Assembly: GCA_965261085.1 (NCBI GenBank)
Contig: OZ253442.1
Span: 3,168,001 to 3,232,000, forward strand
Source of the DNA: a bacterium
GTDB lineage: Bacteria; UBA8248
Reading direction: 5' to 3'
Length of the DNA stretch: 64,000 nt
This document shows positions 3,581 to 37,201 of this stretch, piece after piece. How positions within the stretch are numbered: the first letter of the stretch is position 1; every line of letters starts with the position of its first letter. The notes beneath the pieces are model-generated. The model was given only the letters and a program-made list of their open reading frames with translations. It was not told the DNA's origin and made no database searches. Position numbers and translations under genes: made by a program.

Positions 3581-4459
3581 TCATGCGGAAAAACGCATCG
3601 CCTCCCAGGGGGTTAGGCTGGGGTTTCCCCGCGTGAAGTGCATGGTTTTATCGATCAGGTCGAAGATGACCGCCGTGAACGTCGAACATGGTTGGGCGCT
3701 GTTCGTTCGCGCTCCCGGCGCGCGGAGATTCAGCGCGCAAATCGAACCCAGACCCCCGTCCCCGCTGGGTCCTTTCCAGGAGAGAGTGTTTTTGAGGGCA
3801 TCGAGCGCCTCGTCCTTGCTCATTCCCTGCGGAACGGACTCGTGGAGCCTGTCCAGGGTGTTCTGCATGTATTCGCACCGCGTCTCCCGATCCTCGCGCA
3901 CGTGCTCGGGCAACCGGGCTTGCTCATTCAGCAGGATGAGGCGACCGTTATTCCCGCGCGCCGCGTAGCCTTCCGGGTAGACGTGCGATTCGATTCTGTC
4001 CTCGCAGTGTTCGAGCACGGCGACCTTGCCCGTCGCGTCGGCAAGGAGGAAGTTTCCGCCCCGCTGTCCGGTGCCTTTTCCCGTGTGTCTGGGAAGAACG
4101 TCGTGCAGGTAGGGAAGCGTCTCTTCGACGGTTCCGTAGATTTCCAGGAGGCCCGCGGCGATGGCGCTCCGGCGGTCGACGTCCAGCGGGAAGTCCTTGT
4201 GCTCTTTTACGGGTTCGTCTTTTTCATCGAAAGGCCCCCGGTAGTCCAGAAAAGAGCGTATGACGGCCAGTCCTTTTTCGTTCATACCGGAGTTCACGCC
4301 GGGCCGCGAGGCCGTGTTGAAGCCCATGAAATCGTGGCCGCATCCTCCCGTAATGCAGCCATGCCAATGGCTGACAGGCATGTAGTCCGAGGTTTTCAGC
4401 GCAAAGGCTACGGGATTTCCCCTCGAGTCGGACGTCGCAACAGCGCCTATCGTGCACAT
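3581..4459 (-). CDS. Ntn-hydrolase (peptidase C45/acyltransferase-like)
   Basis: N-terminal M-C-T nucleophile, GMNEKGLA, NFLLADATG, C-terminal RGNP. Confidence 0.75.
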   Translation of the reverse strand: MCTIGAVATSDSRGNPVAFALKTSDYMPVSHWHGCITGGCGHDFMGFNTASRPGVNSGMNEKGLAVIRSFLDYRGPFDEKDEPVKEHKDFPLDVDRRSAIAAGLLEIYGTVEETLPYLHDVLPRHTGKGTGQRGGNFLLADATGKVAVLEHCEDRIESHVYPEGYAARGNNGRLILLNEQARLPEHVREDRETRCEYMQNTLDRLHESVPQGMSKDEALDALKNTLSWKGPSGDGGLGSICALNLRAPGARTNSAQPCSTFTAVIFDLIDKTMHFTRGNPSLTPWEAMRFSA

Positions 4460-4543
4460 TTTATTCTCCTCACTGGATTCGTGAATCCTGGAATTCTGGG
4501 GAGTGGAAAGGAACGCCGGTCGATTCCCCGGCCCAACTCCCCT

Positions 4544-20999: not shown

Positions 21000-22385
21000 T
21001 CATACCACCGCTCCATCCTGGCGAAGCTTATCCCGCAGGGGCTCGACCGGCAGTTCGCGCGGGGTCGTCCTGCGCTCCACGCACATGGCCGCCGCCGTAC
21101 CCGCCGCCTGGCCGATGGTCATGATGTGGGCCTGGTTGCGCACGGAGCCGTTCGCGAAGCGGTCGCTCGAGACGGGCCGGCCCGCCACGAGGCAGTTCTC
21201 TATCTTCTGGGGGAGCATGACGCCGTAGGGAATGCCGTAGGACTCGCCGTCCCTGATGTGCTTGTGCTCGATCACGCCGGAGGGCTGGTGGACGTCCAGG
21301 CAATAGGCCCCCTGGCCGATGTCGCGCGGCCCCTTGCGCGCCTCGACGCAATCCTCGGTGGTGAGGGTCTCCTCACCCACGATGCGGCGCGTCTCGCGCA
21401 CCCCGATGGCCGAGGCCGAATCCATGACGTAGCACTCCTCGAAGCCGGGCGCGTATTTGCGGTAGAAATCGCGCACCTTGAATATCTGCTCGCGGCCCTC
21501 GATGGCGACCTGGTTCAGATCGTCGTTGTCGATCCCGCTGTAGCCCAGCATGCTCGTCGAGTTGATGGTGACCACGCCGGGAATGTTGGTGATGGAGAAC
21601 ACCACCCGCTGTCTGTTCGGGTGAAACTCCCCGCGCGACTGGGCGAGCTTGACCGACTCGTAATAGCCGGTGACGAGGGGGTAGTCCTTATGGGTGCGAA
21701 GCCCTGCGGCGATTTCCTCGCGGCTCTTCCCGATATAGGGGTCCTCTCCGAGCATGAAATTACGCGGGTTGGCCTTGACGTGCTGGATATGCCGGTCCAG
21801 GTCCACGTTCCCCATGCGGGAGAAGAGGCTGATGGACATCATCTGGCCCTCTTCGTTCCCGAGGTGGAAGGGCGCGCCCGCCTGCGCGGCGATGTCCGCG
21901 TCCCCGCTCGCGTCGATGACGATTTGCGCGCGGATATCACTCTCCCCGCTCTTGTTCACGATGCGCGCGCCGGCCACCCTGTCGCCATCCATGACGGGTC
22001 CGATGGTGTAGGTGTTCAGCACCAGGTCCACCCCTGCGTCCAGGCAGAGCTTCTGGTTCACGAGCTTGAGCACTTCGCCGTCCTGGGGCGTTACGGAGTA
22101 GGAGTTGCCATAAGCGTTGTGGAGGTGGCCCTCCGGAAAGGCGCCGCCCAGCCGGATGAGCTCGTCCACGATCTCCTGGGGGATGCCGTTGCAGATTTGC
22201 TCCCCCTTCATGTTGTGGAAGGTGAGGAAGTTGCCGAGAAGGCCCGCTGTCGCGTTGCCTCCCAGGAAGGCGTAGCGATCCGTGAGGACGGTGCGCGCTC
22301 CATGGCGCGCCGCGGCGATCGCGGCGCACACACCGGCCATGCCTGCTCCCACGACGAGGACGTCGACGTTGCTCCTATCGGCCAT
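21000..22385 (-). CDS. FAD-dependent oxidoreductase (FAD_oxidored-type)
   Basis: DVLVVGAGMAG, LGG, IDASGDAD, GVRETRRIVG, YGIPY, GQAAGTAAA; ATG at 22385 after AGGAG. Confidence 0.9.
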   Translation of the reverse strand: MADRSNVDVLVVGAGMAGVCAAIAAARHGARTVLTDRYAFLGGNATAGLLGNFLTFHNMKGEQICNGIPQEIVDELIRLGGAFPEGHLHNAYGNSYSVTPQDGEVLKLVNQKLCLDAGVDLVLNTYTIGPVMDGDRVAGARIVNKSGESDIRAQIVIDASGDADIAAQAGAPFHLGNEEGQMMSISLFSRMGNVDLDRHIQHVKANPRNFMLGEDPYIGKSREEIAAGLRTHKDYPLVTGYYESVKLAQSRGEFHPNRQRVVFSITNIPGVVTINSTSMLGYSGIDNDDLNQVAIEGREQIFKVRDFYRKYAPGFEECYVMDSASAIGVRETRRIVGEETLTTEDCVEARKGPRDIGQGAYCLDVHQPSGVIEHKHIRDGESYGIPYGVMLPQKIENCLVAGRPVSSDRFANGSVRNQAHIMTIGQAAGTAAAMCVERRTTPRELPVEPLRDKLRQDGAVV

Positions 22386-22470
22386 CGGTGTCTCCTTTTC
22401 TCTCCGAGTAAACCTCCGCCGGGAGGCGTTGTCAGTCTTTCGCGCGGGGTCTCCCCCCGCCGTATCCCGC

Positions 22471-23505
22471 CTAGTCCCGTATCGGCTTCGTGACCGCCCG
22501 GGTCTCGCCGTAGGTGGGGAAGAAAAGCGTGTGGCTCCCTGGCCCCCCCGCCACAGCGAGGAGAATGTTTTCCGGCCCATCCACCACCGGAACGGCCTCG
22601 GGTCCCGAGTCCGCAAAAAGCTGCGGACGCCTGCCCCGCACGCGCTCGGCGATCTCGGGTGAAAAACTCGAGAGCGGCACCCACGCTTGTTCGAAGAGCG
22701 CGCGCTGCACGTCCTCGCGGCCCATGCCGCCCGAGGCGAGGAGACCTAGGTGCTGGGGGCTGATGACGAGGAGCACCTCGCCGCCGCCCTGGGCGTTGTT
22801 CGAGCCGGGGTAGGCCATCGTGCCGGCTATCATGCGGAGCACGCTTTCTGCGCTGCCGCTCGCGTAATCGTTCACGTTCACCGGGGCGTCCGCACCCACC
22901 ACCGTCACCGCGCTTTGTTCCGCGCGAAAGCCCCGCGTCGTATGGAGCGGCTCCCAGCCGCAGGCCGCCTCGGTGAAACACGCGGAGAACTTACCCCCGT
23001 GGCCGAAAGTGGCCATGTCGGTCTCGCCGGGCACCGCCATCCCCAGCCGCACGGCGGCCAGGCGGACGGCGCGGCCGATGGTGGCGTTCGCCCTAAAGCC
23101 CGGCCCCAGGCATCCGCTCCCCGAATGCATCCCGAGCCGCTCGGCAATCGGCCCGTGGACGATCACCAAAGGGGAGGCGAGTTCGGTAGTCGCCTGGACG
23201 GCCAGGAAATTGAACTCAGGTTCCATAACGGCTTCGAGCGCCGCCAGAACCACCGGGAAGTACGCCGGCTTGCACCCCGCGATAACCGCGCAGAGGGCCG
23301 CATCTCCAACCGTCACCTCTTCCATGCCGGGCGCCATGATCCCCAGAACGTGGCCGGAACCCTCCTGCACGGCGGCGAGCATGGCGTCGACCGCTCTGCG
23401 CGTGGGGGGGATAAGGGGAAGTCCGTCGCCCGGCCCTGCCTCCATCGCGGCTTCGAGGGCGGCTTCCGCACCTGGCGGCAGTTCACTCAGCAGCGCCTCG
23501 GGCAT
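22471..23505 (-). CDS. Uncharacterised UGSC-associated 'DGLP' family protein (copy 3)
   Basis: DGLPLIPPT, AGCKP, NATIGRA, TFGHGGKF, GGPGSH; collinear with 33824..34879 and with the C-terminal domain of 23509..25116. Confidence 0.85.
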   Translation of the reverse strand: MPEALLSELPPGAEAALEAAMEAGPGDGLPLIPPTRRAVDAMLAAVQEGSGHVLGIMAPGMEEVTVGDAALCAVIAGCKPAYFPVVLAALEAVMEPEFNFLAVQATTELASPLVIVHGPIAERLGMHSGSGCLGPGFRANATIGRAVRLAAVRLGMAVPGETDMATFGHGGKFSACFTEAACGWEPLHTTRGFRAEQSAVTVVGADAPVNVNDYASGSAESVLRMIAGTMAYPGSNNAQGGGEVLLVISPQHLGLLASGGMGREDVQRALFEQAWVPLSSFSPEIAERVRGRRPQLFADSGPEAVPVVDGPENILLAVAGGPGSHTLFFPTYGETRAVTKPIRD

Positions 23506-23508
23506 GGT

Positions 23509-25116
23509 CTAGTCGATCTTCCGCGTGATGGATCGGTGGTTCAGCGCGCCCGGAGCAAGGAGGGAGTTCGGCCCCGCGCCGCCGTGCACCAAGATGGTGA
23601 TGTCGTCCTTGTCCTCGACGAAGGGCATCGTCGCGCCCTCCACCGTGTTCACTCCGTAGAGCATCTGCTTCCAGTCGCTCCAGCGCTCCCGTGATTCGGG
23701 GGGATAGGCCTGGACCGGAACCCGGTAGACCTCATAGAGGAAATCGCGCACGAGCTTCTTGTCGAACCCGGCCTCGGCGACCTTGTTCGCATGGGTGGGG
23801 CCGAAGATGAGCATGATCTCGCAGCGGCCGAACTGCGGCCGGGTGCCCGAGCAGGCGGCGACGGTCCCGAAGGTGCCCAGGATGCCTTGCGCGGTGAGCG
23901 CGCTGTGGTCGTCCACCATGTGGAGCGGTTCGGCGGTGAACACCGTCACCACGCTGTCCGTCTCGGAAAAACCCTTCTCCACGTGGAGCGGTTCCCAGGG
24001 GCTCTGCTCGACGTTCTCGGTGATGGCGTCGAAATACTTGGCGAAATGACCCTGGCATGTCGCGCCCCGGCTTTCCAGGTCGCCGATGCAGTTGAACATG
24101 ATGAGCTTGACCGCGCGGCCGATGGAGGCGTTCACCCCCCAGCCCTGCGCGCTCAAATCGCGCCCGTCGCTCATCCCGATCTCCCGGGCGATGGGGCCGC
24201 TCACCACGACGATGGGAAACAGGGTATGCGCCGTGGTGATGACGTGGTTGACGTGGTACTCCTCGGCCGCCATGGCCTGCACCGCCGTCACGAGGATGGG
24301 CATGGCTCCAGGCTTACAGCCCGCCATAATGGCGTTGGCCGCGATGCGCTCGACGGTGATGTCCGCGAGCCTCGGCATGAGGCGGGTGATGACCTCATCC
24401 CCCTTGCGGCCCGAGGCCGCCACGAACCTCTCCACCATTTCCAGGGTGGGGGGGATGATGGGCAGTCCGTCCGTCGCCCCCAGATCCAAGAGCGTTTGGT
24501 TAGCGCCGGCGGGGTCTCCGTCGATCGTGAGGACCCGCTCGATGGGGTCCTCCTCGGTCTCGGCGGCTCCTCCGTTCGCGGTGTTCATCCACTCGGCGGC
24601 CACCGAATCCACGCCGTTTTGCGCGATGCGCATCAGGGCGTCTCCGCCCTGGTGGGCCACGGAGTCATCCACGAGAAGTAGGCGGAGGTGGGGGGATTTG
24701 TAGGCGCGGGCGAAGCTGCGCGCCGCCGTCTCGAACCCGTTGCCCACCACCACGACGGTGGGGACGCCGCGTTTTTCCAGCTCGGCCGAGTCGTGGACAC
24801 TCCACGACGTGCAGCCCCCTCAGACCCCGAAGCCGGTCACCGCCACGTCGCAGTTCGAGGCGATCTCGTCCAGCGTTTCCTGCCCGGCGCCCTGGGCGGC
24901 CCAGCCCTTCTTGCGCACCAAGAGCTTCGCGTCGTGGCGCTGCGCGAAGGCTTCGCCGACGAAGTTCAGAAAATCACCCGCGTGGGGCATGCTGTTGTCG
25001 AGGAGGGCGATGCGGAGCCCGTCCAGGCCCGTCACCGTAGCGTCTGCGCGGGGGCCGTCATCCTGGGCCACGGCGGCGACGGGATTGATGATTTCGATTC
25101 GACTGTTTGCATCCAT
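23509..25116 (-). CDS. Probable selenoprotein (535 aa, Sec99, UGGC): UGSC-family domain fused to a 'DGLP' domain
   Basis: ORFs 24820..25185 and 23509..24753 are in one frame and separated only by TGA 24820-24822; read-through gives VTGFGV-U-GGCTSWSVHDSAELEKRGVPTV; SECIS-like hairpin; ATG 25116 after GGAGGGAG. Confidence 0.88.
24790..24808 (-). promoter_or_regulatory. Bacterial SECIS-like hairpin
   Basis: GUCGUGGA-GUG-UCCACGAC, perfect 8-bp stem beginning after an 11-nt spacer from the UGA; loop starts GU. Confidence 0.75.
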
Positions 25117-25204
25117 ACCCGAACTCCCTCCGAATATGCGGGGAACACGCACTCCGCTCCCTAGGGGACAGCCAGTGGTCTTCAATTTTTTTCAGATAAG
25201 GCAC

Positions 25205-25232
25205 TTTATAGCAAAATCTGATCGCATGTCAA
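25205..25232 (-). promoter_or_regulatory. Sigma70 promoter of the UGGC-fusion operon
   Basis: TTGACA-N16-TATAAA with TGn extended -10, about 90 nt upstream of ATG 25116. Confidence 0.65.
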
Positions 25233-25368
25233 TTCTTCCGGGGGTGCGTCCGATGACTGCAGCCCGCTTTCCCCAGCCGAAAATTTTCATTCGGCACGAA
25301 ACGATATCAAGGCCAGGTCAAGGAGCCAGTATTGGAGGGCGCAGCACGTCACTATAGATAAACTTTCC

Positions 25369-26499
25369 TTAAAGCAAACTGACCACCCGCTCTAGTTCTT
25401 CTTCGGTATTATAAAAATGCGGCGCAAAACGAAGAGCACTGTCGCGAGCGCTGGCGATGATTCTCTTCTCACGCAGAAGCTCCACCACCTTCCTGGGATT
25501 GGACGACTCGATGCTCACAATGGCGGCGCGCTCCTCCCAGGAACGAGGAGTCAGAATCTTCTCCCCCCGCCTCTCCAGTAACTCCATCAAATAAGTCGTC
25601 AACTGCCGTACACGCTCCTCGATGTGCTCAAGTCCCACCCCTGCAAGGAACTCGGCCGAGCGGCCAAGGACCCACAGACCCAGATAATTGGGATTTCCGA
25701 TCTCGAACCGGTGGGCATCCGGGGCCAGTCCGACTTCCATCCGGTCGAGCACTTCGCGAACCATGCTGGCGCGGGCATAGAAAGGAGGCTTCATCTCGGG
25801 AATCAAGTCTTCGCGGCAATAGAGAAAACCCGTGCCAGGCAGACCGAGCAATCCCTTGTGCCCGCCACAGACCACGATATCCGCCCCGAGGGCCGGCAAT
25901 GATGCCGAGAGGATCCCGATTCCCTGAATCGCATCCGTCATCAAAAGAATCCCGCGCTCGCGGCAGGCCGCGCTCAGGGCAGGCAGGTCTATTCGGCAAC
26001 CGGTCCCGAAAATCACGTAGGAAACCGCTACGACGCGCGTTCTCTCATCCATCAGTTCGATGAACGCCTCCGGCGGGAAGCGGCCGTCCCGATTTCGCAC
26101 CCATCGCAATTCGACGCCTCTTTCCTCGAGGCGCTTCCAGGCATACACCTGGTTCGGGTGGTCCATTTCCGTCTGGACGACGTTATCTCCCGCCTTGAGA
26201 TCCAGGGCCTGTACAGCGATGTTCAAACCCTCTGAAGTATTTTTGATGAACGCGATTGTCCGGGGCGAGACGCCCAGGAGCGAAGCCAGCGAAGAACGAA
26301 TCTCTTCCACACGGAGTTTGGAAAAAGCCCCACGAACGCCGAGTTCATTCAACTCTCGCAGGAATTCCGGAATGGCGTCCTGAGCGCACTGGGGAAGGGG
26401 CGCTTTGTTGGCGAGGTCCAGATAGGTCCAATGCTGCGTGACCGGAAATTCATTCCGGAGGGCCGTGAAATCCGGAGCAATCGCCTGTTTTTCGATCAT
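25369..26499 (-). CDS. Aminotransferase class V PLP enzyme (lyase-like)
   Basis: YLDLA..APLP, NTSEGLN, DAIQG, CGGHKGLLG, RFEIG, RFAPHFYN. Confidence 0.88.
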   Translation of the reverse strand: MIEKQAIAPDFTALRNEFPVTQHWTYLDLANKAPLPQCAQDAIPEFLRELNELGVRGAFSKLRVEEIRSSLASLLGVSPRTIAFIKNTSEGLNIAVQALDLKAGDNVVQTEMDHPNQVYAWKRLEERGVELRWVRNRDGRFPPEAFIELMDERTRVVAVSYVIFGTGCRIDLPALSAACRERGILLMTDAIQGIGILSASLPALGADIVVCGGHKGLLGLPGTGFLYCREDLIPEMKPPFYARASMVREVLDRMEVGLAPDAHRFEIGNPNYLGLWVLGRSAEFLAGVGLEHIEERVRQLTTYLMELLERRGEKILTPRSWEERAAIVSIESSNPRKVVELLREKRIIASARDSALRFAPHFYNTEEELERVVSLL

Positions 26500-26631
26500 C
26501 AGTCTTTCTCCTGTCACAAAAGTCCGGAAACCCATTTTCGCCTGCTCATTATGGATCGCGCTACGATGGGTAATTACGTTCTCAAGAATTCAGGCAACAT
26601 GCAAACACATCATCAGGCGCCGGGCGCCCGC

Positions 26632-27933
26632 TTACGCCACGCCGCACCACTCGAGTATCAAGTGGAGCAACCCGTCGACAGAAAGCTGCAACTCGTCGAT
26701 ATAGGTAAATTCGTCGGGGATGTGACCCCGCGGGCAATTTCCTCCAAACATGATGGTGGGCGTGTCGCCGTAGAGAATCGGGAATCGCATATCCGTTGTC
26801 CCGTTCAGGGCCTGAAGCTGGGAAGGACGGCCCGTGACCCGTTCGGCTACGGACAAAGCCGTTCGGACAAACGGGTGCTCAGAATCGGTGAGGCAAGATT
26901 GCGCGCGTCTCTCCGTCCATTCCAAACGGGGCGGATGCTCACGAAGCCACGAGTCGGCCTCGGCGGCTCGGGTGAGGTGGTCTTCCACCAGTTTTTTCAC
27001 CTCCTCGATGCTTTCTTTAGGCGCCACCCCCGCCACGCCCTCCAGTACGCATTCGGCCGGGAGTTGCCCGATGGACACACCAGCACGCACCATGGTCACC
27101 ACAAGGTTCACCGTGCGAGGTTCGAGTCCGCTTATCTCAAAACGTTTTTCCACCAGGGGTTCGCGAACCGTGGCTCCTCTATGCGCGTCCAGCTCTCTGA
27201 GCGCGGCGTGGATATTCTCGGCTTTCTCGATGGCGTTCACGAAAAGATGCGCCGAACCTTTGTGACCGGCCTGGCCCGGCACGGTGATCCGGAAACTCAC
27301 ATCGCCGCCCGAACCGATATCCACGCCGCCGAATCCTCCCGGTTTCATATGGGTGTAGACGGCTCCATCCGCCTTAAGGCCGCGAAAAACGCACGCCAGC
27401 ATCCCCCCTCCGCCTCCTTCTTCTTCTTCGACGGTGGAGAGGAGAGTCAGATCCCCCTTGAGACGCACTCCGGCGCCTTGTAAGGCCCGGGCGCACGCAA
27501 TCATGACGGCCAACCCCGACTTGGCGTCTCCTGAACCCCGTCCATAGAGGCGATTGTCCTCCACCTCGCCCCCGAATGGATCTCGCGTCCAGGCAGTTCG
27601 CGGCCCAGGGGGAACCGTGTCGGCGTGACAAAACAGGAGGAGCGACCTGCCGCCTCCCGCTCCCCGCATGCGGCCGAGCACGTTCGGCCGGCCGGCATAC
27701 CCCTTCTCCAGCGAGAAGCGGGGGGCCGAAAACGCCGGATGCTCTCTCAACTCTTCCAGGTTCGCCTCGAACGCCTCCATCTCGAGACCGGTATCGGCAA
27801 ATCGTTTTTGCACCAGGGCCTGAACCGCCCCCTCCTCTCCCGTGGGGCTGGGAATTCGAACAAGTTCCTGAAGAAGAGCAACCACGTCGATTTGCCGAGC
27901 TTGGGAAATCACCTTTTCGAGAGCATCGTTCAT
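26632..27933 (-). CDS. M20 family deacylase/peptidase (ArgE/DapE-like)
   Basis: CHADTVP, LYGRGSGDAK, VEEEEGG, GHIPDE. Confidence 0.9.
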   Translation of the reverse strand: MNDALEKVISQARQIDVVALLQELVRIPSPTGEEGAVQALVQKRFADTGLEMEAFEANLEELREHPAFSAPRFSLEKGYAGRPNVLGRMRGAGGGRSLLLFCHADTVPPGPRTAWTRDPFGGEVEDNRLYGRGSGDAKSGLAVMIACARALQGAGVRLKGDLTLLSTVEEEEGGGGGMLACVFRGLKADGAVYTHMKPGGFGGVDIGSGGDVSFRITVPGQAGHKGSAHLFVNAIEKAENIHAALRELDAHRGATVREPLVEKRFEISGLEPRTVNLVVTMVRAGVSIGQLPAECVLEGVAGVAPKESIEEVKKLVEDHLTRAAEADSWLREHPPRLEWTERRAQSCLTDSEHPFVRTALSVAERVTGRPSQLQALNGTTDMRFPILYGDTPTIMFGGNCPRGHIPDEFTYIDELQLSVDGLLHLILEWCGVA

Positions 27934-28057
27934 TAAAAATCCTCCGGGAAAATCTTCTGCTTTTTTTGGATGGTACGTATTGTGCTTCCGTTTCGCCATC
28001 AAGCGTGCGAACCCAAGATCACCGGGCCTAATTTAGTGGAAAAGAAAGGCCCATTGA

Positions 28058-29083
28058 CTAAATGAGTGAACCGGCCGTGACGCCGACGCTCCCCGCAAAA
28101 TGACAGGCCACCGTGTGGCCGGGTTGGAACTCTCTCAGCACTGGCTTCTCTTCCACGCAACGCTGCTCGCTGTACGGACAACGGGTATGGAAACGGCATC
28201 CGGTCGGCGGGTCAAGGGCGGAAGGAACCTCTCCCTTGAGGATGATGCGCCGCCGCTGCCTGGCCTTCACCGGATCCGCCACCGGAGTGGCCGATAGCAG
28301 CGCCTGCGTATAAGGGTGTAATGGGGTGGTGAAGAGAGACTCAACCGCCGCAAGCTCCACGATCTCACCGAGGTACATGACCCCCACCCTGTCACAGACC
28401 GAGCGCACAACCCCCAGGTCGTGCGTGATGAAGAGGTAGGAGAGATCATGTTGCGCCTGAAGAGCTTTCATGAGGTTCAGGATCTGGGCGCGGATGGAGA
28501 TGTCGAGTGAGGAGACAGGCTCATCGGCGATCACCAGCCGGGGCTTCAGCGTGAGAGCCCGCGCGATGCCGATACGCTGACGCTGGCCGCCGCTGAGCTG
28601 GTGAGGATAGCGGTCCATGAAGATTTCGCCCGGCTCCATGCCCACCTGGTTCAGGAGATCAACGACGGTCTCATCAATCTCCCCTTTATTCACCACGTCA
28701 TGATTGAGGAAAGGCTGGCGCAGGATTGCCCGCACGGTGCGCCTGGGATTCAAGGATTCGAAGGGATCCTGAAAAATCATCTGCACTTCTCGATTGTACT
28801 GCTTGAGAGCGGGTCCTCTCAATTCCGCGACCTCTTGTTCGTCGAAGAGGATGCTTCCATCGTCGGGCTTTTCCAATTTCGCCAGCAAGCGGGCCGTCGT
28901 CGTTTTCCCGCAGCCGCTTTCACCCACCAGGGCGAACGATTCACCGGCTTTGACCGAGAAACTGATGTCGTCCACGGCGTGCACGTGGCGAGGAGGCCGG
29001 AACCATCCCCCTTCGACGGGAAAATGTTTCGTCAGCCTGCGCACTTGCAAGAGTGAATGATTCATGGAGGCGGGATCACTCAT
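28058..29083 (-). CDS. Peptide/nickel ABC ATP-binding protein (DppF-like)
   Basis: GESGCGKT, LSGGQRQR, C-terminal CRFHTRCP..C..C. Confidence 0.93.
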   Translation of the reverse strand: MSDPASMNHSLLQVRRLTKHFPVEGGWFRPPRHVHAVDDISFSVKAGESFALVGESGCGKTTTARLLAKLEKPDDGSILFDEQEVAELRGPALKQYNREVQMIFQDPFESLNPRRTVRAILRQPFLNHDVVNKGEIDETVVDLLNQVGMEPGEIFMDRYPHQLSGGQRQRIGIARALTLKPRLVIADEPVSSLDISIRAQILNLMKALQAQHDLSYLFITHDLGVVRSVCDRVGVMYLGEIVELAAVESLFTTPLHPYTQALLSATPVADPVKARQRRRIILKGEVPSALDPPTGCRFHTRCPYSEQRCVEEKPVLREFQPGHTVACHFAGSVGVTAGSLI

Positions 29084-30059
29084 AAAGCCAGCAAGCCACC
29101 ATCCGCCCCTTCCCCAAACTCAAGGAAGGCGGCGACTCTTCGCGGCAGATGTCTTTAACGTGGGGACAGCGCGGATGGAAGCGGCAACCCGACGGCATGT
29201 CTGTCGGGTTTGGCACCTGCCCTTCAATGGTTTCAAAAACCTCAACGCGCTTGTCGGGGCTGAGCGTCGAACGCAAGAGACCCACCGTATAGGGATGTTT
29301 CGGTTCGGCGAACAGGGTAAAGGTGTCGGCGTGCTCTACAATCTGGCCCGCATACATGATGTAGATTCGGTCGCAATGCTCCGCCACCAGGCCGATATCG
29401 TGGGTGATCAGGAACAGGGCGTTCTGGAGTTCCTCGCGAAGTTGGGCGAGCAGGTCCATGATTTGCGCCTGAATGGTTACATCCAGCGCCGTGGTGGGCT
29501 CATCGGCGATGAGCAGGGACGGGCGGCACGAAATGGCCATGGCGATGAGCACCCGTTGGCGCATGCCGCCGCTCAGCTGATGGGGGTAGCTATCGTAGAC
29601 CCTTTGGGGGGAAGGGATGCCGACATGATCGAATGCATCGAGCACCTGTGAGCGAGCTTCGCGTTTCGTGACCTCCTGGTGCTCCAACACCACCTCCGCC
29701 ACTTGGGCCCCGGCCCGCATGACGGGGTTCAAATAAGTCATGGGATCCTGAAAGACCATGGCGACCTCCTTTCCGCGGAGGTTGCGCATACTCGCCGCAT
29801 CCAGCGTCAGAAGATCCACGTCGTTCAACAGCACTTCGCCTGAGAGGATGCGGGCCACGACCGGCTGGAGCCGGATGATGCTGAGAGCCGTCATGGATTT
29901 CCCCGACCCCGACTCTCCAACCAGCGCAACCGCCTCCTTGCGGTTCACTTCCAGCGACACGCCGTCAACGGCTTTGATCACGCCGGCAGGGACATCGAGG
30001 TAGGTCCTCAGATCGGAGACCCGCAGGAGGCCATTTCGATTTTCCGCCTTCTTGTTCAT
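29076..30059 (-). CDS. Peptide/nickel ABC ATP-binding protein (DppD-like)
   Basis: [34 protein letters not shown]. Confidence 0.93.
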
Positions 30060-30955
30060 AGTCCGGTCCGATGAATTTCGGAAGAGCGAGGATTGAGCAC
30101 GTCGTTTAAGCCGTCTCCCAGCAGATTGAGCGTCAAGACCGAAAGAAAGATGCCCAAACCAGGATACACGGCCATCCACCACGCTTGTCGCAGAAAAGGC
30201 TGAGCTTCGTAAAGCATCCGCCCCCAGGTCACCAGGCTGGGGTCTCCCAGACCCAGATAGCTCAAACCCGCTTCCAGCAGCATCGCCTGCGCCGTTAAAA
30301 GAGAGGCATTTACGACTACAACCCCCATGGCGTTCGGCAGAATCTCACGAAAGATAATGGTCGAGCGCCTCGTCCCGATCACATGCGCGGCATCCACGAA
30401 TTGCCGTGTGCGCAGGGTCAGAAATTCCGAGCGAACGATGCGGGCCGTCACCGGCCACGTTAAAATGGAGATGGCGAAGATGATGATCCAGATGCTCGCC
30501 CCGAAGAAGGCGACGATGATCAGGGCAAGGAAGAAGCGCGGAATCACCATGAAAGTCTCGGTGAGCCTCATCAGAATGTCGTCGACCCACCCGCCCAGGT
30601 AACCGGAGATTGTGCCCACGAGAAGGCCTACGACCGTCGTGGCAAAGGCCGCCGAGAAACCGACGAAGATCGAGACCCGCCCGCCCCACAGGATTCGGCT
30701 TAAGACGTCGCGGCCGAGATTGTCGACGCCCATGAGGTTGCGGTAACTATGCCCGCCCAGCCGCGAACCCGAACCCAGGGCGTAAGGATCATAGGGCGCC
30801 AGGACGGGCGCGAATAAAACCAGTAAAACCAGCAACAACAACACGGACGCTGCGATGGGCACCGCGCGATTCTGGCTGAATGCTCCCCAGATGGCCCTCC
30901 ACTGCGGCCCTCTTTTCGAGCTTCGGTGAGCGATTGGCTTTGTTGTTGTCGTCAC
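30056..30955 (-). CDS. Peptide/nickel ABC permease (DppC-like)
   Basis: GVDNLGRD, EILPN, LSYLGLG, LLGDGL. Confidence 0.93.
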   Translation of the reverse strand: MTTTTKPIAHRSSKRGPQWRAIWGAFSQNRAVPIAASVLLLLVLLVLFAPVLAPYDPYALGSGSRLGGHSYRNLMGVDNLGRDVLSRILWGGRVSIFVGFSAAFATTVVGLLVGTISGYLGGWVDDILMRLTETFMVIPRFFLALIIVAFFGASIWIIIFAISILTWPVTARIVRSEFLTLRTRQFVDAAHVIGTRRSTIIFREILPNAMGVVVVNASLLTAQAMLLEAGLSYLGLGDPSLVTWGRMLYEAQPFLRQAWWMAVYPGLGIFLSVLTLNLLGDGLNDVLNPRSSEIHRTGL

Positions 30956-30967
30956 GGTTCCAGATTC

Positions 30968-31951
30968 CTATCCATAAGCCACACGCGGGTCAATCATGGC
31001 GTAGAGAATGTCCGTGATGAGGTTTGCAAGCACTATCATCATCGAGACGACGAGGAAGATTCCCAGAATCATCGGATAGTCCCGCGCGGTAATCGATTCG
31101 AAAATCAGCCTGCCCATGCCCGGCCACCCGAACACGGTCTCGGTGAACACCGAGCCCGCCATGACGTATGCGAAATTGATGCCGATCACGGTAACCACCG
31201 GGAGCAGCGCATTGCGCAGGGCATGCCGGTAGAGCACGCGGCGTTCGTTCAACCCCTTGGATTTCGCGGTCAGGATGAAGTCCTGCGCAAGTGTTTCCTG
31301 CATCTTGCCCCGTGTGATTCGGAATACGAGGGTCATATGATAAGTGGCGTAGGTAATGGCGGGAAGGATCAAGTGCTTCAAGACGTCAAGAACCGCAGGC
31401 CAGCCGGGCTCCACCCCGCGCATCGAATACATGCCCTGGCTCGGCAGCCAGTCCAGGTAAAGAGCGAAGAAAAGTATGAGAAGTTGACCCAGCCAGAAAA
31501 TGGGCATCGAATAGCCGGCGAGCGAAGCCAGGGTCGCCAGGTGGTCACCCACCGAATAGGAGTAACGCGATGCAATAACGCCCAGTATGACTCCCATGAC
31601 GCTGGCTATGGAGAAGGCCGTCGCCATGAGGAGCATGGTGGCCGGCAGGCGATCCAGAATAACGCCGAGTACGGGGGAGTTGTGCCAGGTGGAATAGCCC
31701 AAATCCAGATGAAGAAGCTTCCACAAATAAATTCCCATCTGGACGTGAAGAGGCTTGTCCAGGCCGAACTCAATGCGCAGTTCCTCGTATGCCTCCGGGG
31801 TGGCTTCGGTGACGCTGGCCAGGTAAATGGCCGGATCTCCCGGAGCGAGATGGATGATGGTGAAGTTGATGATGACGACCCAGAAGACAAGAGGGACAGC
31901 TTGAAGGATACGCCTTACGGTGTAACGCAGAAGCGGATGTCCACCTGCCAT
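30968..31951 (-). CDS. Peptide/nickel ABC permease (DppB-like)
   Basis: APGDP, TAKSKGL, HALRNA, ETVFGWPGMG, DPR. Confidence 0.93.
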   Translation of the reverse strand: MAGGHPLLRYTVRRILQAVPLVFWVVIINFTIIHLAPGDPAIYLASVTEATPEAYEELRIEFGLDKPLHVQMGIYLWKLLHLDLGYSTWHNSPVLGVILDRLPATMLLMATAFSIASVMGVILGVIASRYSYSVGDHLATLASLAGYSMPIFWLGQLLILFFALYLDWLPSQGMYSMRGVEPGWPAVLDVLKHLILPAITYATYHMTLVFRITRGKMQETLAQDFILTAKSKGLNERRVLYRHALRNALLPVVTVIGINFAYVMAGSVFTETVFGWPGMGRLIFESITARDYPMILGIFLVVSMMIVLANLITDILYAMIDPRVAYG

Positions 31952-31986
31952 GGATTGCCCCTCAGTGAGACGTCAAGAGACCTATA

Positions 31987-32010
31987 GGGCCCCGCCCGGA
32001 GACGGGGCCC
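31987..32010 (-). terminator. GC-rich hairpin after the binding-protein gene
   Basis: GGGCCCCG...CGGGGCCC 8-bp stem; no U-tract. Confidence 0.4.
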
Positions 32011-32036
32011 CTGCAACAGAAATTCAAATTCTAGGC

Positions 32037-33653
32037 CTACTTAAGGTAAGCGTCCTCCCGCGTACAATAAGCGCAGTAGGGACGCGTGACCACATCCGCC
32101 CATTTTGCTGAATGCGTGTGGACGAACGGCGTCTCGAACAGCGGGATCACGGGCGCGTCGGCCGCGACCATATCGGCGATCTGACGCCAAGCGGCGCCCC
32201 GCTTCTTTACGTCCTGGATCTGCCATTCGGCGTCAAGAAGACTCTGAACGCCGACGTTGATGTAGGATGGTGCATTGTTGAAGTTCGCCGAGCCGATGTT
32301 GTTTCTGTCATAGACCCGGGTCACGCTGATCTTGGGGTCCGGACCGGTGGTGAAGAACTGCATCATGATGTCGAAGTTGTGGTTGATGTACACCTTCTGC
32401 AGTGTCGCCGCCCGGTCGAAGGATTCGATCTTGATGTCGATGCCGACCTTCTTGAGTTGTTGCTTGATCACCTCGGCCGCCAATCCCTCAAAGTTGCGGC
32501 CACGAGCCCAGGTTAGCGTGAGGCCGAAGCGTTTGCCTCCTTTCATCGGGTAGCCCGCCTCATCGAGCAGCCTGTTCGCCATGGCCACGTCATGCTTGTA
32601 CTGATCAAAGCTGCCCTTGTGCGCCCACCTCATGGCAGAGTGCATGATGCCGTTCGCCACTTTCGCGGTGCCCCCGGAAGCCAGTTGGCTGATCTGGTTC
32701 TTATCCAGCGCATACGCAATCGCCTGGCGAACCTTCACGTTTCCGGTAATCGGCCGCCGGAGGTTCAAGAGCATGAAGTCGACCTGTCCTGTCGCCTCTC
32801 CCCCTTTATCTAGGACGACGAGTTTCGGGTTCTTCCTGAGACGGTCGGCCTGATCCCAGGGGACGAGGGCTGCGCGCAGATAGTCGATCTCCCCTTTCTC
32901 CAGGGCAATGAGCCGGGTGTTGGCGTCCGAGATGAACCGGATAACCAATTCATCCGCGTAGGGCTTGGGCGCGTTCCAGTAATTCGGGTTCCGCACGAGC
33001 CTGACGTGGCTTCCCTTCTTGTATTCCTTGAGCATGAAGGGCCCCGTTCCTACGGGTTTCTTGCTCCACGGAGCGTTCAGGAACGCCTTGCGGCTGCCCA
33101 CATGATCCTTCCAGAGATGCTTGGGGTAGATGGCGGGTCCACCGAAGATCACGCCCATAACCGTGAGCAACGGGGCGAAAGGCTTCTTGAGGCGCACGAC
33201 GACGGTGTACTTGTCCGGCGCTTCCACCTTCTCCGCCACCGGCTTCCAGAAAACGCGCGACCGGGGATTGTACGGGAGGCACTTCTCCAGCGAGAACTTG
33301 ACGTCCTCGCTCGTCATCTCCTTGCCGTCATGGAACTTCACGCCCTTTCGGAGGTGGAAAATGAGCGTTTTCCCTCCGTCTTTGACCTCCCAGGACTTCG
33401 CCAATTCCGGCTTCGGATTGAGATTGAAGTCGAGGGTGATCAGCTTGTTGTAGATGTTGACGGCCGGCACCTGGACCGTGGTGCCCGGTTTGACGATCAG
33501 GTTGAAGTGCCCCGGGTCGGCTTCCAGGCCGATAACCAGCGTGCCTCCCCGCTTCTGTGCCCATGCGACCCCTTGAACCTGGCCGAGGGCAAGCAACGCC
33601 GCGAGAACAAAGAAAATAGCGACGCTTCCAAATCGGATCTTATTCCGTTCCAT
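32037..33653 (-). CDS. Family 5 ABC substrate-binding protein (DppA/NikA-like) with C-terminal CxxC
   Basis: Signal peptide from MERNK, PELAKSW, LRKGVKFHDG, GTGPF, ends RPYCAYCTREDAYLK. Confidence 0.92.
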   Translation of the reverse strand: MERNKIRFGSVAIFFVLAALLALGQVQGVAWAQKRGGTLVIGLEADPGHFNLIVKPGTTVQVPAVNIYNKLITLDFNLNPKPELAKSWEVKDGGKTLIFHLRKGVKFHDGKEMTSEDVKFSLEKCLPYNPRSRVFWKPVAEKVEAPDKYTVVVRLKKPFAPLLTVMGVIFGGPAIYPKHLWKDHVGSRKAFLNAPWSKKPVGTGPFMLKEYKKGSHVRLVRNPNYWNAPKPYADELVIRFISDANTRLIALEKGEIDYLRAALVPWDQADRLRKNPKLVVLDKGGEATGQVDFMLLNLRRPITGNVKVRQAIAYALDKNQISQLASGGTAKVANGIMHSAMRWAHKGSFDQYKHDVAMANRLLDEAGYPMKGGKRFGLTLTWARGRNFEGLAAEVIKQQLKKVGIDIKIESFDRAATLQKVYINHNFDIMMQFFTTGPDPKISVTRVYDRNNIGSANFNNAPSYINVGVQSLLDAEWQIQDVKKRGAAWRQIADMVAADAPVIPLFETPFVHTHSAKWADVVTRPYCAYCTREDAYLK

Positions 33654-33823
33654 TGCTCTTCCCTCCAAAATGATGGATTGACACCAACACCCCTGTATGG
33701 AACGGGATGTTGCGCCGCAATGTCCTATCACCCCCGGCATTGAACCCCCGCCATTCGGCAAGGGCTCAATTATCGGGTCCGATAGGGTGTTGACTCCGTT
33801 CCTCTCCCGAGTCCGACTCACGT

Positions 33824-34879
33824 TCAGTCGGTGAAAGAAAATTCAATCTTGCGCGTAACGCTATGCGTGGTTCCGAATGTCGGGATGACGAGGCTATGCT
33901 TCCCGAGACCTCCTGCGACGAACAGGCAGATGCTCTCCTCATCGTCGACGACGGGAATGCTCTCCAGGTCTTCTCTGGCGAAGAGTTCGCCTCGGCGCCC
34001 CCGCGCCCGTTCGAGGTTCGCCGGCGCAAAGAAAGACGTTGGCACCCTGCCCCTCTCATAAAGGAAAGCCCGGATTCGCGGTGGATCCCAGCCGTCGCGA
34101 ACAAACATGTCGACGTGTTCGGGGCCGAGAATGACCACCATCTCCCCGCCGAAAAGCGCGTTGTTGCTCCCCGCCTGCATCATCGACGAGGCGATGGATT
34201 GAAGCACTCCCTCGCCCTCCGTGCTGCTCGCGTCGTTGACCATAATATGCGGGTCGATGGCGATAACCGTCACGGCGCTGTCCGAACGCTCGAGGCCGCG
34301 CTCGACGTGGAGCGGCGGCCACGGGCTCGCCTCTTCGTTTTCGCCGATACAGCTTGAAAACTTGCCCTGGTGGCCGAAGGTGCTGCGATCGGTGTCGCCC
34401 GGTATGGCGCCCCCGATGTTTTGCAGGATGAACCGGAATGCCCTGCCGATGGTGGCGTTGGCCCGCCAACCCTGGCCGAAGAGGTTTTCCTTGCAATTGA
34501 TTCCCAGCGCGTGGCGAGCGGGCCCGTGGACAACGATGAGCTGCGCGATACAGTTCGTGGTCCCCTGAACTCCCGGGAGGTTGTAAATGGGGTCAAAGAT
34601 GGCATTGACGGCGGTAATGAGGATAGGCATGTACTCGGGCTTACAGCCCGCCATGGCGGCGTTGATGGCGATCTTCTCGATCGTGGCGTCGCCGAAGAGG
34701 TGGGGGATGCGTCCATGGGACTCCGGGGGTGGCCGCCCCGAAGCCTCCACCATGTTTGCCACCAGCTCTTCGGTGGGCGGGATGACGGGCATTCCATCTC
34801 CCCAGCCCTGTTGCATTATGTATTCAAGCAGTTCCAGGGGGGAGTCCGCCACCTCGTGGCGCTTGGAGGTCAGTTTCAT
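33824..34879 (-). CDS. Uncharacterised UGSC-associated 'DGLP' family protein (copy 1)
   Basis: DGMPVIPPT, NAAMAGCKP, NATIGRA, TFGHQGKF, ENEEASPW, GGLGKHS; start overlaps the upstream stop (ATGA). Confidence 0.87.
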   Translation of the reverse strand: MKLTSKRHEVADSPLELLEYIMQQGWGDGMPVIPPTEELVANMVEASGRPPPESHGRIPHLFGDATIEKIAINAAMAGCKPEYMPILITAVNAIFDPIYNLPGVQGTTNCIAQLIVVHGPARHALGINCKENLFGQGWRANATIGRAFRFILQNIGGAIPGDTDRSTFGHQGKFSSCIGENEEASPWPPLHVERGLERSDSAVTVIAIDPHIMVNDASSTEGEGVLQSIASSMMQAGSNNALFGGEMVVILGPEHVDMFVRDGWDPPRIRAFLYERGRVPTSFFAPANLERARGRRGELFAREDLESIPVVDDEESICLFVAGGLGKHSLVIPTFGTTHSVTRKIEFSFTD

Positions 34880-35433
34880 TCTTTGTCTTCCGGAGGTGGC
34901 GTCACTGTAAGAGACTTCGCGACGCTTTCCAGTATCTGGTCCGCGTGGGTATGCACCGTATCGATCGGGATTCCAGTGATGGGGTGGGGGATCGAGACCA
35001 TGGGGAGGTCCGCAAAACCCAAGGCCCCCGCCTTCTTGCGACCAAAGGCCTCGAACATATCCGTGATGATGGTGAGAGTGGGTATCCCGCGCTGTTCCAG
35101 CTTAATCGCGTCGTGGATACTCCACGGCGTGCAAGACCCTCAGTCGGGCACCGCGTTCACCACGAAGTCGCACTCACTGGCCATCCGTTCGACCAGATCC
35201 TCCTCCAGGGGGAGCGCGCTGCCTCCCTTGCGGTAGTGAGTGAACGAGCCGATAGGAAATTTCCCGCGCAACCGCTCCTCCAACCGGCGGAGCAGCTTGT
35301 CGGAGTTGGGTTTCGTGTTGTCGAGAAGCCCGAGGCGAATTCCCTCAAGCAAGGCGGGCCGGGCGGCCGGCCGCACCTTTTCAATCAAAGGGGGTATTCC
35401 CGAGGGATCGAGGATCACCAAAGTCTTCCCCAA
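34876..35433 (-). CDS. Probable UGSC-family selenoprotein (185 aa, Sec98)
   Basis: ORFs 35140..35433 and 34876..35058 are in one frame and separated only by TGA 35140-35142; read-through gives [27 protein letters not shown]...IPHPITG; SECIS-like hairpin; TTG start after GGAGGAG. Confidence 0.9.
35110..35128 (-). promoter_or_regulatory. Bacterial SECIS-like hairpin
   Basis: GCCGUGGA-GUA-UCCACGAC (7 of 8 pairs) after an 11-nt spacer from the UGA; loop starts GU. Confidence 0.72.
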
Positions 35434-35499
35434 AAAAGACTCCTCCCCAACAAATACGTGGATTCGCGCTCAACTTGGTTTGCACTTATTAAAGCAAGA

Positions 35500-35560
35500 T
35501 CCGATATTGATATGATGTTTTAAGATAAATCATCCTGTCATATATCATGGATTGTGTCAA
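35500..35560 (-). promoter_or_regulatory. Putative promoter/operator region of the UGSC operon
   Basis: TTGACA at 35555-35560, weak TGn-CAGGAT -10 at 17 nt, and GntR-like TGATATATGA / ATCATATCA elements in an AT-rich gap. Confidence 0.45.
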
Positions 35561-35780
35561 CAAACCCTTGATTTGCCCCTGCGCCAAAGGGTTCGACAGA
35601 ATCGGCATTCAATATGGGCAGCTAACTGATCTCACGCCCGTTCAGAAATTCCCGCACGGCTGAATGAGCCGAACCGCTCCGCCGCCATACATGCCCGCGC
35701 CCGGCATCCACCCACCGCAAATGCGGATTTAACCCATCCAGGAAAGGAGTGATTTTGAAGGCCGCGCTCTTTTGAAGTCT

Positions 35781-37085
35781 TTACAACTCGATCACGTCCA
35801 TCGCGTCGGGAGTGAGAATCCGGGGGCCGCTCTCCTCGACTATCACCTGGGGGCCGAAGACGATGAACATCCTGTCCTCGTGCGCGGCCTTTACCTCCAC
35901 AGCCAAGGCCATGCCCGCCTCGACCTCGAAATCCTCCAGAAAACCGTAGCGATCGCCCGCTAGTTCGCGCCATTCGGGGTTCTCGGCGAGGCTCCCCTCA
36001 ACGTACGGCTCGCGCCACGAAGAATCTCTTGGAATATCACCCGCGCATATCGTCGTCATGGGCGGCTCGATGCCGTCGATTCCCACGCCGTGCACCTGGG
36101 GGATTTCGTGGTAATACCCGCTTCTGAGCACCGCCTCGTTCGATGCCCTGTCCACCTCGGACCATGGCGTCCCGGGCTTCAAGGCGCCCAGCGCGGCGCT
36201 TAAGCTCTCCAGCACCGCCTCGCGCAGGGGCTTGTATTCCTCATCCATCGGGCCAATCGACATCGACGTGTGCGGGTGGCTCCAGTAGCCCCCGTAGCGC
36301 GCGTAATAGCCGATGCACAGCATGTCGCCCGTGCGCAGAATCCTGTCCGTGGGTCTTCTGTTCACCGGATATCCCTTGCCCGAGCAGAGGATGAGCCAGC
36401 TATCGCGGCCCGGCTCCGCCCCCGCGCGCAGGCTCGCGCTGAAAAGCTGCGCGTACACCTCGCTCTCCCGCACGCCCGGGCGGCAGCAGCCGAGCACGGC
36501 GTCTATCTCGATGTTCACCATCTCGGCCGCTTTTTCCAGCATCGCGACTTCCTCGGCGCTCTTCACCATGCGGAGGCGCGTCAAGATGTCCGAAGCGTCG
36601 GCGAACGCCGCGTTCGGCAGGAGGCGCTTCAGGTTTTGGTACGTCATGTAGGGAATCGCGCCCTCGGCGCCGTATCCCCCGCCGATCAGGCCGACGATTC
36701 CGATTCTCCCGCTCTCATACCCCAGTTCCTTGATGGCGTCGGTGGCCACGATGCTCACCTTCCCCTCGTGCCCCCGGTAGCGCACCCCCTCGAAACACGA
36801 TTCGGTGTACCACTTGCCCCAGTTCTGCAGGAGCCAGAAGGTGACGGGCGCTCCTTTCCGGGGAAACACCATGCTGCGCTCCCCGTAATCACCCCCGTCG
36901 AGCCAGCGGGTGTCGCCGTTTCCGTTCGAGCCGCGTCCGATGACGATGAGGCAATCGAGCCCGCGCTCATCCATGGCGGCGCGAACCGCGTTCCACCGCC
37001 TGTCGCGCTCTTCAGCAGAAAACGAAGCCGCAGCGTCGCCCGCGCGGCCGTCTTTCGGGAAAAACCTGGGATCCGTTACCATCAT
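35781..37085 (-). CDS. M24 (Xaa-Pro peptidase/creatinase-fold) protein
   Basis: FSAEERDRRW N-domain, RMVKSAEE, RPGVRESE, HGVG, GMALAVE. Confidence 0.85.
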   Translation of the reverse strand: MMVTDPRFFPKDGRAGDAAASFSAEERDRRWNAVRAAMDERGLDCLIVIGRGSNGNGDTRWLDGGDYGERSMVFPRKGAPVTFWLLQNWGKWYTESCFEGVRYRGHEGKVSIVATDAIKELGYESGRIGIVGLIGGGYGAEGAIPYMTYQNLKRLLPNAAFADASDILTRLRMVKSAEEVAMLEKAAEMVNIEIDAVLGCCRPGVRESEVYAQLFSASLRAGAEPGRDSWLILCSGKGYPVNRRPTDRILRTGDMLCIGYYARYGGYWSHPHTSMSIGPMDEEYKPLREAVLESLSAALGALKPGTPWSEVDRASNEAVLRSGYYHEIPQVHGVGIDGIEPPMTTICAGDIPRDSSWREPYVEGSLAENPEWRELAGDRYGFLEDFEVEAGMALAVEVKAAHEDRMFIVFGPQVIVEESGPRILTPDAMDVIEL

Positions 37086-37201
37086 CTTCTCCTGAAATTT
37101 TCGGGGCGAATCTCCTCCGCGCGACTGGACGCCGACGCGCGGAATCATTTAGCCTCAGTTGTCATTTACCCTCACTATAATGGATGCGCAGGCGCCTGAA
37201 A

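Follow-up and report, generated by a model that had tools for sequence, protein, structure and literature searches.

The gene analysed here lies on the minus strand, at positions 23509-25116, of a 64,000-nucleotide stretch of contig OZ253442.1 (positions 3,168,001 to 3,232,000; assembly GCA_965261085.1, a bacterium of the GTDB lineage UBA8248), referred to below as the window. It very probably encodes one selenoprotein of 535 residues, in which an N-terminal domain of the UGSC family is joined by a linker to a C-terminal DGLP domain and UGA codon 99 is decoded as selenocysteine (Sec). The frame runs from ATG 25116 to TAG 23509-23511, comprises 535 sense codons and contains a lone in-frame TGA at 24820-24822, which is codon 99. 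The residues flanking the UGA are ...VTGFGV-U-GGCTSWSVHD..., and from residue 176 onward the acidic sequence NGGAAETEEDP is followed by TDGLPIIPPT and about 330 further residues. In the list of open reading frames (ORFs) obtained with translation table 11 the same region appears as a 121-aa ORF up to the TGA and a 414-aa ORF from GTG 24753 (codon 122). A first-pass annotation of the window had proposed that the ORF caller cut one gene at this TGA and that the frame continues through the linker into the DGLP domain, which is confirmed by the sequence.

By itself, an open frame proves little here, because GC-rich DNA yields many spurious ORFs. The decisive point is that one and the same Pfam UGSC match crosses the TGA. 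It covers residues 8-176 with an E value of 1.6e-37 and spans model positions 1-170 of 172 of PF24696, which argues for real coding across the TGA rather than chance. The genome consists of a single 4.27-Mb contig and was searched for the Sec machinery with curated cut-offs. The four components named in the first-pass annotation were all found above these cut-offs, namely selA (579 bits), selB (384 bits), selD (336 bits) and selC, the gene for tRNA-Sec (75.9 bits). Since selD (G000:C1:3459-4421) contains one in-frame TGA, SelD itself is a selenoprotein in this genome. Exactly one in-frame TGA is also present in each of the eight UGSC copies of the genome.

Homologues and orthologues were compared at the position of the UGA. 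The homologue alignment comprises 138 sequences, and 47 of them besides the query have a residue in the Sec column. This residue is Cys in 32 of the fused homologues, Ser in seven, Ala in three, Ile in two, and His, Gly and Leu in one each. Thus, homologues with Cys aligned to the UGA, as anticipated in the first-pass annotation, do exist, and Trp does not occur at this position in the alignment. The full-length Cys-type homologues are single ORFs of 528-574 residues, and the stand-alone Cys forms carry an invariant D-C-G-S-C motif. Within the genus, 16 of the 23 genomes, the present one among them, carry the complete fused frame with a single TGA at 81-100% identity; two further genomes have a partial fused frame at contig ends and five contain paralogues only. 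One genome of a sister genus also holds the fused frame, at 65% identity. The TGA and identical flanking residues are kept in all 12 orthologous loci (this locus and 11 from relatives). In the stretch from the TGA to the called GTG (codons 100-122), the 11 orthologues show 25 synonymous differences and one non-synonymous difference. The corresponding counts in the linker are 35 and 62, and its length shifts by whole codons only (one-codon indels).

A hairpin resembling a selenocysteine insertion sequence (SECIS) follows the UGA, and an 8-bp hairpin is found 11 nt past the UGA in all eight UGSC copies of the genome. Over the alignment of these copies 93.8% of the cells are paired, compared with 17-50% if the 3' partners are slid by 1-3 columns. 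Compensatory changes were observed in two of the hairpin pairs, one from GC to CG in three copies and one from GC to AU via two synonymous changes.

The TGA was further compared with contigs of four runs from four studies, two of these runs being metatranscriptome (RNA) libraries. The contigs of all four runs bridge both the TGA and the linker; they show no difference at 24820-24822, and no indels are listed anywhere in the stretch. The TGA is retained in these contigs, which speaks against the sequencing error considered in the first-pass annotation. Since the data of all four runs are contigs, they show presence and carry no information on expression level, transcript ends or read-through. 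The summed contig depth peaks at 24764-24825 in all four runs (up to 604 in run X17). Many short contig pieces lie at 24790-24822, in the conserved motif and hairpin common to UGSC paralogues and relatives in the same communities, and are read as contigs of paralogues sharing both elements. Three contig joints (sides of 20-24 letters, likeness cut-off 90) are likewise treated as paralogue cross-matches.

How else could the TGA be explained? If it were a true stop, a 98-residue UGSC remnant would be followed by a separate 414-residue gene starting at GTG 24753. Such an arrangement would agree with the table 11 ORF calling, which yields exactly this division, and with the public predictions of the orthologues, which are proteins of 413-415 residues starting with MVVGNGFET... 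and named 'hypothetical protein'. However, the Pfam match continues over the TGA, codons 100-122 are under strong purifying selection as seen from the differences given above, single-ORF Cys homologues of the full length exist, and both the Sec machinery and the hairpin are present. In addition, the GTGs at codons 122-124 have no Shine-Dalgarno core upstream. The first-pass annotation had stated that neither a convincing ribosome-binding site nor a start precedes the downstream ORF. This is correct for the three GTGs, and ATG codon 162 has only a weak GGAG upstream. The argument does not discriminate in any case and is given little weight, since a Shine-Dalgarno core is likewise missing from the two stand-alone DGLP genes of the window. 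All in all, we consider a true stop very improbable. An artefact of sequencing or assembly, hiding either a two-gene state like that of 33824-35433 or a sense codon at the TGA position, would be conceivable because fusions and in-frame stops seen in a single genome are often errors and because the second locus in the window has a split arrangement. This explanation is hardly credible, since the fused frame with one TGA recurs in the 16 genomes of the genus and in the sister genus, the TGA flanks are identical in all 12 loci, the contigs of four runs from four studies bridge TGA and linker free of TGA differences and indels, and the linkers of the orthologues differ in length by whole codons only. 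Thus, the initial observation holds, and the gene is confirmed at the sequence level as a real selenocysteine-containing gene that is cut in two by gene callers. If the UGA were not decoded in the fused form, translation would stop short of the DGLP domain, and it is a reasonable inference that this domain depends on the selenium supply. The features of the window are compiled in Table 1.

Table 1. Positions of the fused selenoprotein gene, its elements and related genes in the window.
Feature	Position	Strand	Basis or remark
Fused selenoprotein coding sequence (535 residues and TAG stop)	23509-25116	-	Single frame with one TGA; same in relatives
UGA codon 99, read as selenocysteine, motif U-G-G-C	24820-24822	-	Frame, homologue alignment, orthologues, contigs
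Ribosome-binding site GGAGG	25127-25131	-	10 nt upstream of ATG 25116
SECIS-like hairpin, 8-bp stem and 3-nt loop	24790-24808	-	Fold; starts 11 nt after the UGA
UGSC-family domain, residues 8-176	24589-25095	-	Pfam PF24696, 129.8 bits (cut-off 25)
Variable acidic linker, residues 177-200	24517-24588	-	Substitution counts, whole-codon indels, dip in model confidence
DGLP domain, residues 201-535, uncharacterised family	23512-24516	-	Conserved motifs in homologue alignments
Codon of Cys267, nearly invariant Cys of the DGLP domain	24316-24318	-	Cys in 131 of 138 aligned sequences
Stand-alone DGLP paralogue	22471-23505	-	Its ATG lies 3 nt past the stop of the fused gene
Second UGSC selenoprotein gene, stand-alone, motif U-G-S-C	34876-35433	-	In-frame TGA 35140-35142; Pfam E 9.8e-52
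Stand-alone DGLP gene	33824-34879	-	ATGA overlap with the upstream UGSC gene (34876-35433)

The fused arrangement extends far beyond the genus. In a search of representative proteins, many of the best 150 of 4383 matches are single ORFs of 528-574 residues that align from about residue 6-30 to about residue 530 of the query. Many others among these 150 have 414-453 residues and begin at query residues 104-130; because of these starting points they are presumably remnants of Sec-type fusions left by gene callers. Genomic loci were scanned with one genome per species, and the best 80 loci were kept and classed by their motif pattern. Among them 25 are in-frame fusions with a TGA at the Sec position. 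In a further 16 a Sec-type UGSC motif lies upstream in another frame, in 13 a UGSC motif lies upstream in the same frame with an intervening stop (12 Sec, 1 Cys), in 14 it lies downstream of DGLP, and 12 are without the motif by the pattern used. UGSC thus adjoins DGLP in unfused form in 43 of the 80 loci. The loci are spread over many phyla, with sources such as Alpha-, Beta-, Gamma- and Deltaproteobacteria, Chloroflexi/Dehalococcoidia, Methylomirabilota, Binatia and Acidobacteriota; Robertmurraya sp. 2P01SA and Vineibacter terrae are isolates among these sources. By homology, the UGSC-DGLP fusion is real, conserved and widespread. A distant second fused paralogue occurs in the same genus (G015:C1:3266427-3267944); it covers residues 26-535 at 34% identity and has two in-frame TGAs in an open frame of 546 residues. 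In a metagenome-assembled genome (MAG) of the Chloroflexi (L056, about 1195-5500), three consecutive UGSC-DGLP motif pairs were found within 7.5 kb, all with TGA and each in a different frame.

The N-terminal domain belongs to the UGSC family, which is the 'UGSC-containing protein' of Zhang and Gladyshev. It resembles the known members in having Sec at the U-G-x-C position, Cys homologues and a hairpin after the UGA. The known UGSC proteins comprise about 180-210 residues and carry the motif UGSC, whereas in the present protein the domain forms the N-terminal third of a chain of 535 residues and the motif is UGGC. According to the passages cited, the UGSC-containing protein has been listed since 2007 as a selenoprotein family of unknown function. 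It is counted among the major families of aquatic metagenomes, and in the Global Ocean Sampling data 255 of its sequences have Sec and 21 have Cys (PMC1976440, PMC2398784, PMC9312934, PMC13188914). Its fold is called thioredoxin-like in the literature (cited passages of PMC2398784), whereas in the present model strands and helices alternate in the domain and a helix begins at U-G-G-C. In a Foldseek search with the whole chain as query, the UGSC part matched flavodoxin- or receiver-like chains, among them 5lji (template modelling score, TM, of 0.55 of the target) and 3eul, with target TM values of 0.5-0.55; thioredoxin is absent among the matches listed for this part.

A fusion termed 'UGSC/Unknown_1' was already reported in 2008 for the Global Ocean Sampling selenoproteome, under 'Novel Domain Fusions Involving Selenoproteins' and in the legend of Figure S1A (PMC2398784). 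As far as the main text and this legend describe it, a UGSC domain is fused there, as in the present gene, to a conserved domain that has a conserved Cys and also occurs separately. All UGSC fusions that we met carry DGLP, including both longer matches in a search for longer UGSC-containing proteins, which with only two matches says little about how varied the fusion partners are. Since every fusion met joins DGLP, Unknown_1 as presented in these parts of PMC2398784 is quite probably the DGLP domain. No other paper with both 'UGSC-containing' and 'Unknown_1' was found, and the DGLP family may be in print under another name. The novelty implied by the first-pass annotation was therefore overrated: the N-terminal domain is a known family, public genomes commonly contain the fusion, and the cited parts of PMC2398784 describe a UGSC/Unknown_1 fusion.

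The DGLP family has a length of about 340 residues (about 335 in this chain) and is characterised by the conserved motifs DGLP..PPT, NAxMAGC, GRA, PWxPLHVExG and GGxGxxS. Nearly invariant are D216-G-L-P219, P223, N261..M264-A-G-C267, G307-P308, G333-R-A335, N342, E367, P373-W374 and G512. The DGLP part has no Pfam match even at E values up to 10 and no NCBIfam match, and a DGLP profile searched against the sequences of the Protein Data Bank (PDB) gave only chance-level matches to HisF (E 0.6-2). In the ESM Atlas the clusters are unnamed or automatically named 'thioredoxin family' or 'thiol-disulfide oxidoreductase' and carry no Pfam family; these names are leads only. The public name seen for DGLP proteins and fusions is 'hypothetical protein'.

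Structure models were obtained for the whole chain, with a predicted local distance difference test score (pLDDT) of 91.9 and a predicted TM score (pTM) of 0.92, and for the stand-alone DGLP protein (33824-34879; pLDDT 96.2). In the whole-chain model the pLDDT falls to 63 at residues 181-190 in the linker. A Foldseek comparison of the whole-chain and DGLP-domain models with the PDB revealed no convincing relative of DGLP; the weak matches are cyclic amide hydrolases and class I fumarate hydratase (E 6.8e-4 to 1e-2, TM 0.16-0.27). With VIA-align, none of 48,161 representative chains reached a Z score of at least 8, and the best match had a Z score of 5.5 over 90 residues (chorismate mutase, 1fnk). 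Judged by these models, no solved relative of DGLP is recognised, and novelty of the fold is not claimed.

In other proteins DGLP is fused to N-terminal AhpC-TSA/Redoxin domains (P0105, P0117, P0216, P0233, P0239) and, in one case (P0180), to a C-terminal pyridine nucleotide-disulphide oxidoreductase domain (Pyr_redox_2). Together with UGSC, the fusion partners of DGLP are all thiol-redox modules. Tandem fusions of two DGLP domains with a length of about 710 residues also occur in other organisms (P0132, P0165, P0166, P0170, P0205, P0210).

The genome contains 15 DGLP and eight UGSC copies. Seven of the UGSC copies are fused to DGLP or lie directly beside it, and the eighth is 2.6 kb from a tandem of four DGLP genes. 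The second UGSC gene of the window is shortened to 97 residues by the gene caller; together with its DGLP neighbour it forms the separate, ATGA-coupled pair at 33824-35433 that had been described in the first-pass annotation, where the in-frame TGA of this UGSC gene was not emphasised. For complex prediction we used the natural split genes of a Sphingomonas MAG (L053, 2941-3549 and 3553-4605), both of which are readable with table 11 and have Cys in place of Sec. The predicted complex of UGSC and DGLP reached a median score of 0.84, compared with 0.02 for the best control. A score of 0.84 is attained by 58 of 80 solved complexes and by two of 110 mismatched pairs, counts that are only rough because custom family alignments were used. 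The partner pLDDT is 86 or higher, and at least 79% of the contacts are shared between the runs. On the UGSC side the predicted interface includes residues 2-14, 94-96 and 98-100, where C94 corresponds to the Sec position. On the DGLP side it includes residues 35-38 (the PPT motif), 155, and 73-74 and 77, the latter three being located beside the invariant Cys80, which corresponds to Cys267 of the present protein. UGSC and DGLP are thus predicted to bind each other with the Sec-equivalent position at the interface and the Sec motif facing the conserved pocket of DGLP. The physical partnership that had been suggested on account of the fusion is supported by the adjacency of the genes in the genome, the widespread fusion, the pTM of the whole-chain model and the complex score.

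The following mechanism is proposed. UGA codon 99 would be decoded as Sec by the machinery that SelA, SelB, SelD and tRNA-Sec of the genome supply, aided by the hairpin 11 nt downstream. The UGSC and DGLP parts may then together form one enzyme, in which DGLP would offer a polar pocket with the nearly invariant Cys267 and bind the substrate, and UGSC would bring Sec99, usually accompanied by Cys102, to this pocket. Sec99 could serve as the redox-active or nucleophilic centre, and the pair would act as a selenol/thiol-dependent oxidoreductase on a small substrate. On the present evidence we lean towards such an oxidoreductase, with DGLP binding the substrate and contributing Cys267 while Sec99, usually with Cys102, reacts.

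GrdB and PrdB, the selenoprotein B subunits of the glycine and D-proline reductases, exemplify a Sec subunit that acts with a separate substrate-binding partner. Like the present protein they carry a U-x-x-C motif (PF07355; the Sec motif of PrdB is given in Table 2 of PMC2398784). They provide a working analogy, by which a Sec at the subunit interface could attack the bound substrate. The DGLP partner, in contrast, matches no Grd or Prd family. On sequence grounds, a relationship between UGSC and GrdB/PrdB is rejected, as PF07355 is listed neither for the UGSC nor for the DGLP part in Pfam searches with E values up to 10. The genome has PF07355 genes of its own, namely two full-length genes free of internal stops (G000:C1:2149655-2150692 and 1206087-1207121) and three partial matches.

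The main rival to an oxidoreductase accepts the Sec fusion as real and regards DGLP as a non-redox enzyme, for instance one that hydrates, isomerises or hydrolyses small organic acids or amides; UGSC would then be an accessory subunit of regulatory, sensing or structural function and not the catalytic redox centre. We consider this unlikely, though to be taken seriously. The weak fold matches would fit such an enzyme, in particular class I fumarate hydratase (7xky, Z 4.5 over 186 residues with a root-mean-square deviation of 5.1) and the Toblerone-fold cyclic amide hydrolase (5hy4, E 6.8e-4, TM 0.18), but they are far under the level of kinship, with no chain at Z 8. Neighbouring genes at other loci encode family III coenzyme A (CoA) transferases, enoyl-CoA hydratases, acyl-CoA dehydrogenases and an HpcH/HpaI-type lyase, and residue 99 is neither Cys nor Sec in 15 of the 47 fused homologues, both of which would suit non-redox chemistry. 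On the other hand, every recurrent fusion partner of DGLP is a thiol-redox module, the complex models place the Sec-equivalent residue at the interface beside an invariant Cys, and Sec is kept in all eight copies of the genome, which would be costly unless it is catalytic.

Several observations weigh against the interpretation of the gene as a Sec-dependent oxidoreductase or limit parts of it. The 15 homologues just mentioned have Ser, Ala, Ile or other residues at position 99, and of the 49 rows with a residue at position 102 (query row included) only 27 have Cys. With NCBIfam model NF041046, 'UGSC family (seleno)protein', the protein scores 97.5 bits, which is under the equivalog cut-off of 125; by this measure it is a divergent, fused UGSC member and not an equivalog of the stand-alone protein. 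Compensatory change is confined to two of the eight hairpin pairs. Furthermore, the stem overlaps the codons of the conserved T-S-W-S-V-H-D motif, which is also present in the Cys forms, so that the conservation of the hairpin is in part a constraint of the protein. The contigs from the RNA libraries do not prove transcription or read-through. The fractions of fused and adjacent loci are biased upward, because the 80 loci were selected by their match to a query that is itself fused. The structure of DGLP gives no indication of its chemistry, since DGLP has no convincing solved relative. Finally, the neighbouring genes vary from locus to locus, indicating no single substrate.

For the analysis of the neighbourhood 40 ORFs were annotated, at the window and at eight of nine other loci; the ORF calling was crude and includes some ORFs on the wrong strand, which makes a clustering of the neighbours unreliable. 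Across the loci, the neighbours comprise peptide transporters of the ATP-binding cassette (ABC) type, peptidases of families M20, M24 and S15, pyridoxal phosphate-dependent enzymes and a flavin adenine dinucleotide (FAD) oxidoreductase. CoA-transferases, enoyl-CoA hydratases, acyl-CoA dehydrogenases and the E1 and E2 components of a 2-oxoacid dehydrogenase are also found, as well as luciferase-like monooxygenases, a xanthine-dehydrogenase-like protein and an AhpD/CMD-like protein. These neighbours point to peptide, amino-acid and acyl-CoA catabolism, with no single substrate. In the window, both UGSC/DGLP sets are part of one same-strand cluster (about 21000-37148, minus strand). The other genes of the cluster encode an M24/creatinase-like peptidase, a family-5 solute-binding protein, two Opp-type ABC ATPases, an M20 peptidase, a class-V aminotransferase and a PF12831 FAD oxidoreductase; permease genes would be expected at 30200-32000. 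Elsewhere in the genome, four tandem DGLP paralogues (G000:C1:654322-658532) adjoin a xanthine-dehydrogenase-like molybdenum enzyme, a Sec-type UGSC gene and two enoyl-CoA hydratases. At G000:C1:1674591-1676276 a DGLP gene has no UGSC neighbour and is located beside a carboxymuconolactone decarboxylase/AhpD-like gene (PF02627). The product of the latter, a member of another thiol-redox family, might be a stand-in for UGSC at this locus.

The gene is a mis-annotated member of a known selenoprotein family, and its arrangement is widespread and has probably been reported before. Public predictions split or truncate this gene and its orthologues, and the many Sec-type fusions of other phyla can be expected to be affected likewise. 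Relative to the published passages cited here, the present results go further in describing the DGLP family and its expansion (15 copies in this genome), the other redox fusions, the predicted interface and the Cys-type split pair. These results provide a handle on the function of UGSC: a constant partner of about 340 residues with an invariant Cys and no family model, which is predicted to bind UGSC with the Sec position at the interface and which elsewhere has peroxiredoxin-like and thioredoxin-reductase-like fusions. The Cys-type split pair of the Sphingomonas MAG should be expressible without the Sec machinery. As a tentative and so far rather doubtful proposal, UGSC and DGLP may represent a widespread, uncharacterised two-part Sec-dependent oxidoreductase, in which DGLP would be a new fold for diverse small substrates and UGSC would deliver the Sec or Cys centre to the Cys of DGLP. 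Such an enzyme would be a counterpart of the clostridial glycine and proline reductases in non-fermenting environmental bacteria. If this is true, the 15 DGLP paralogues of this genome would be set in operons of peptide, amino-acid and acyl-CoA catabolism.

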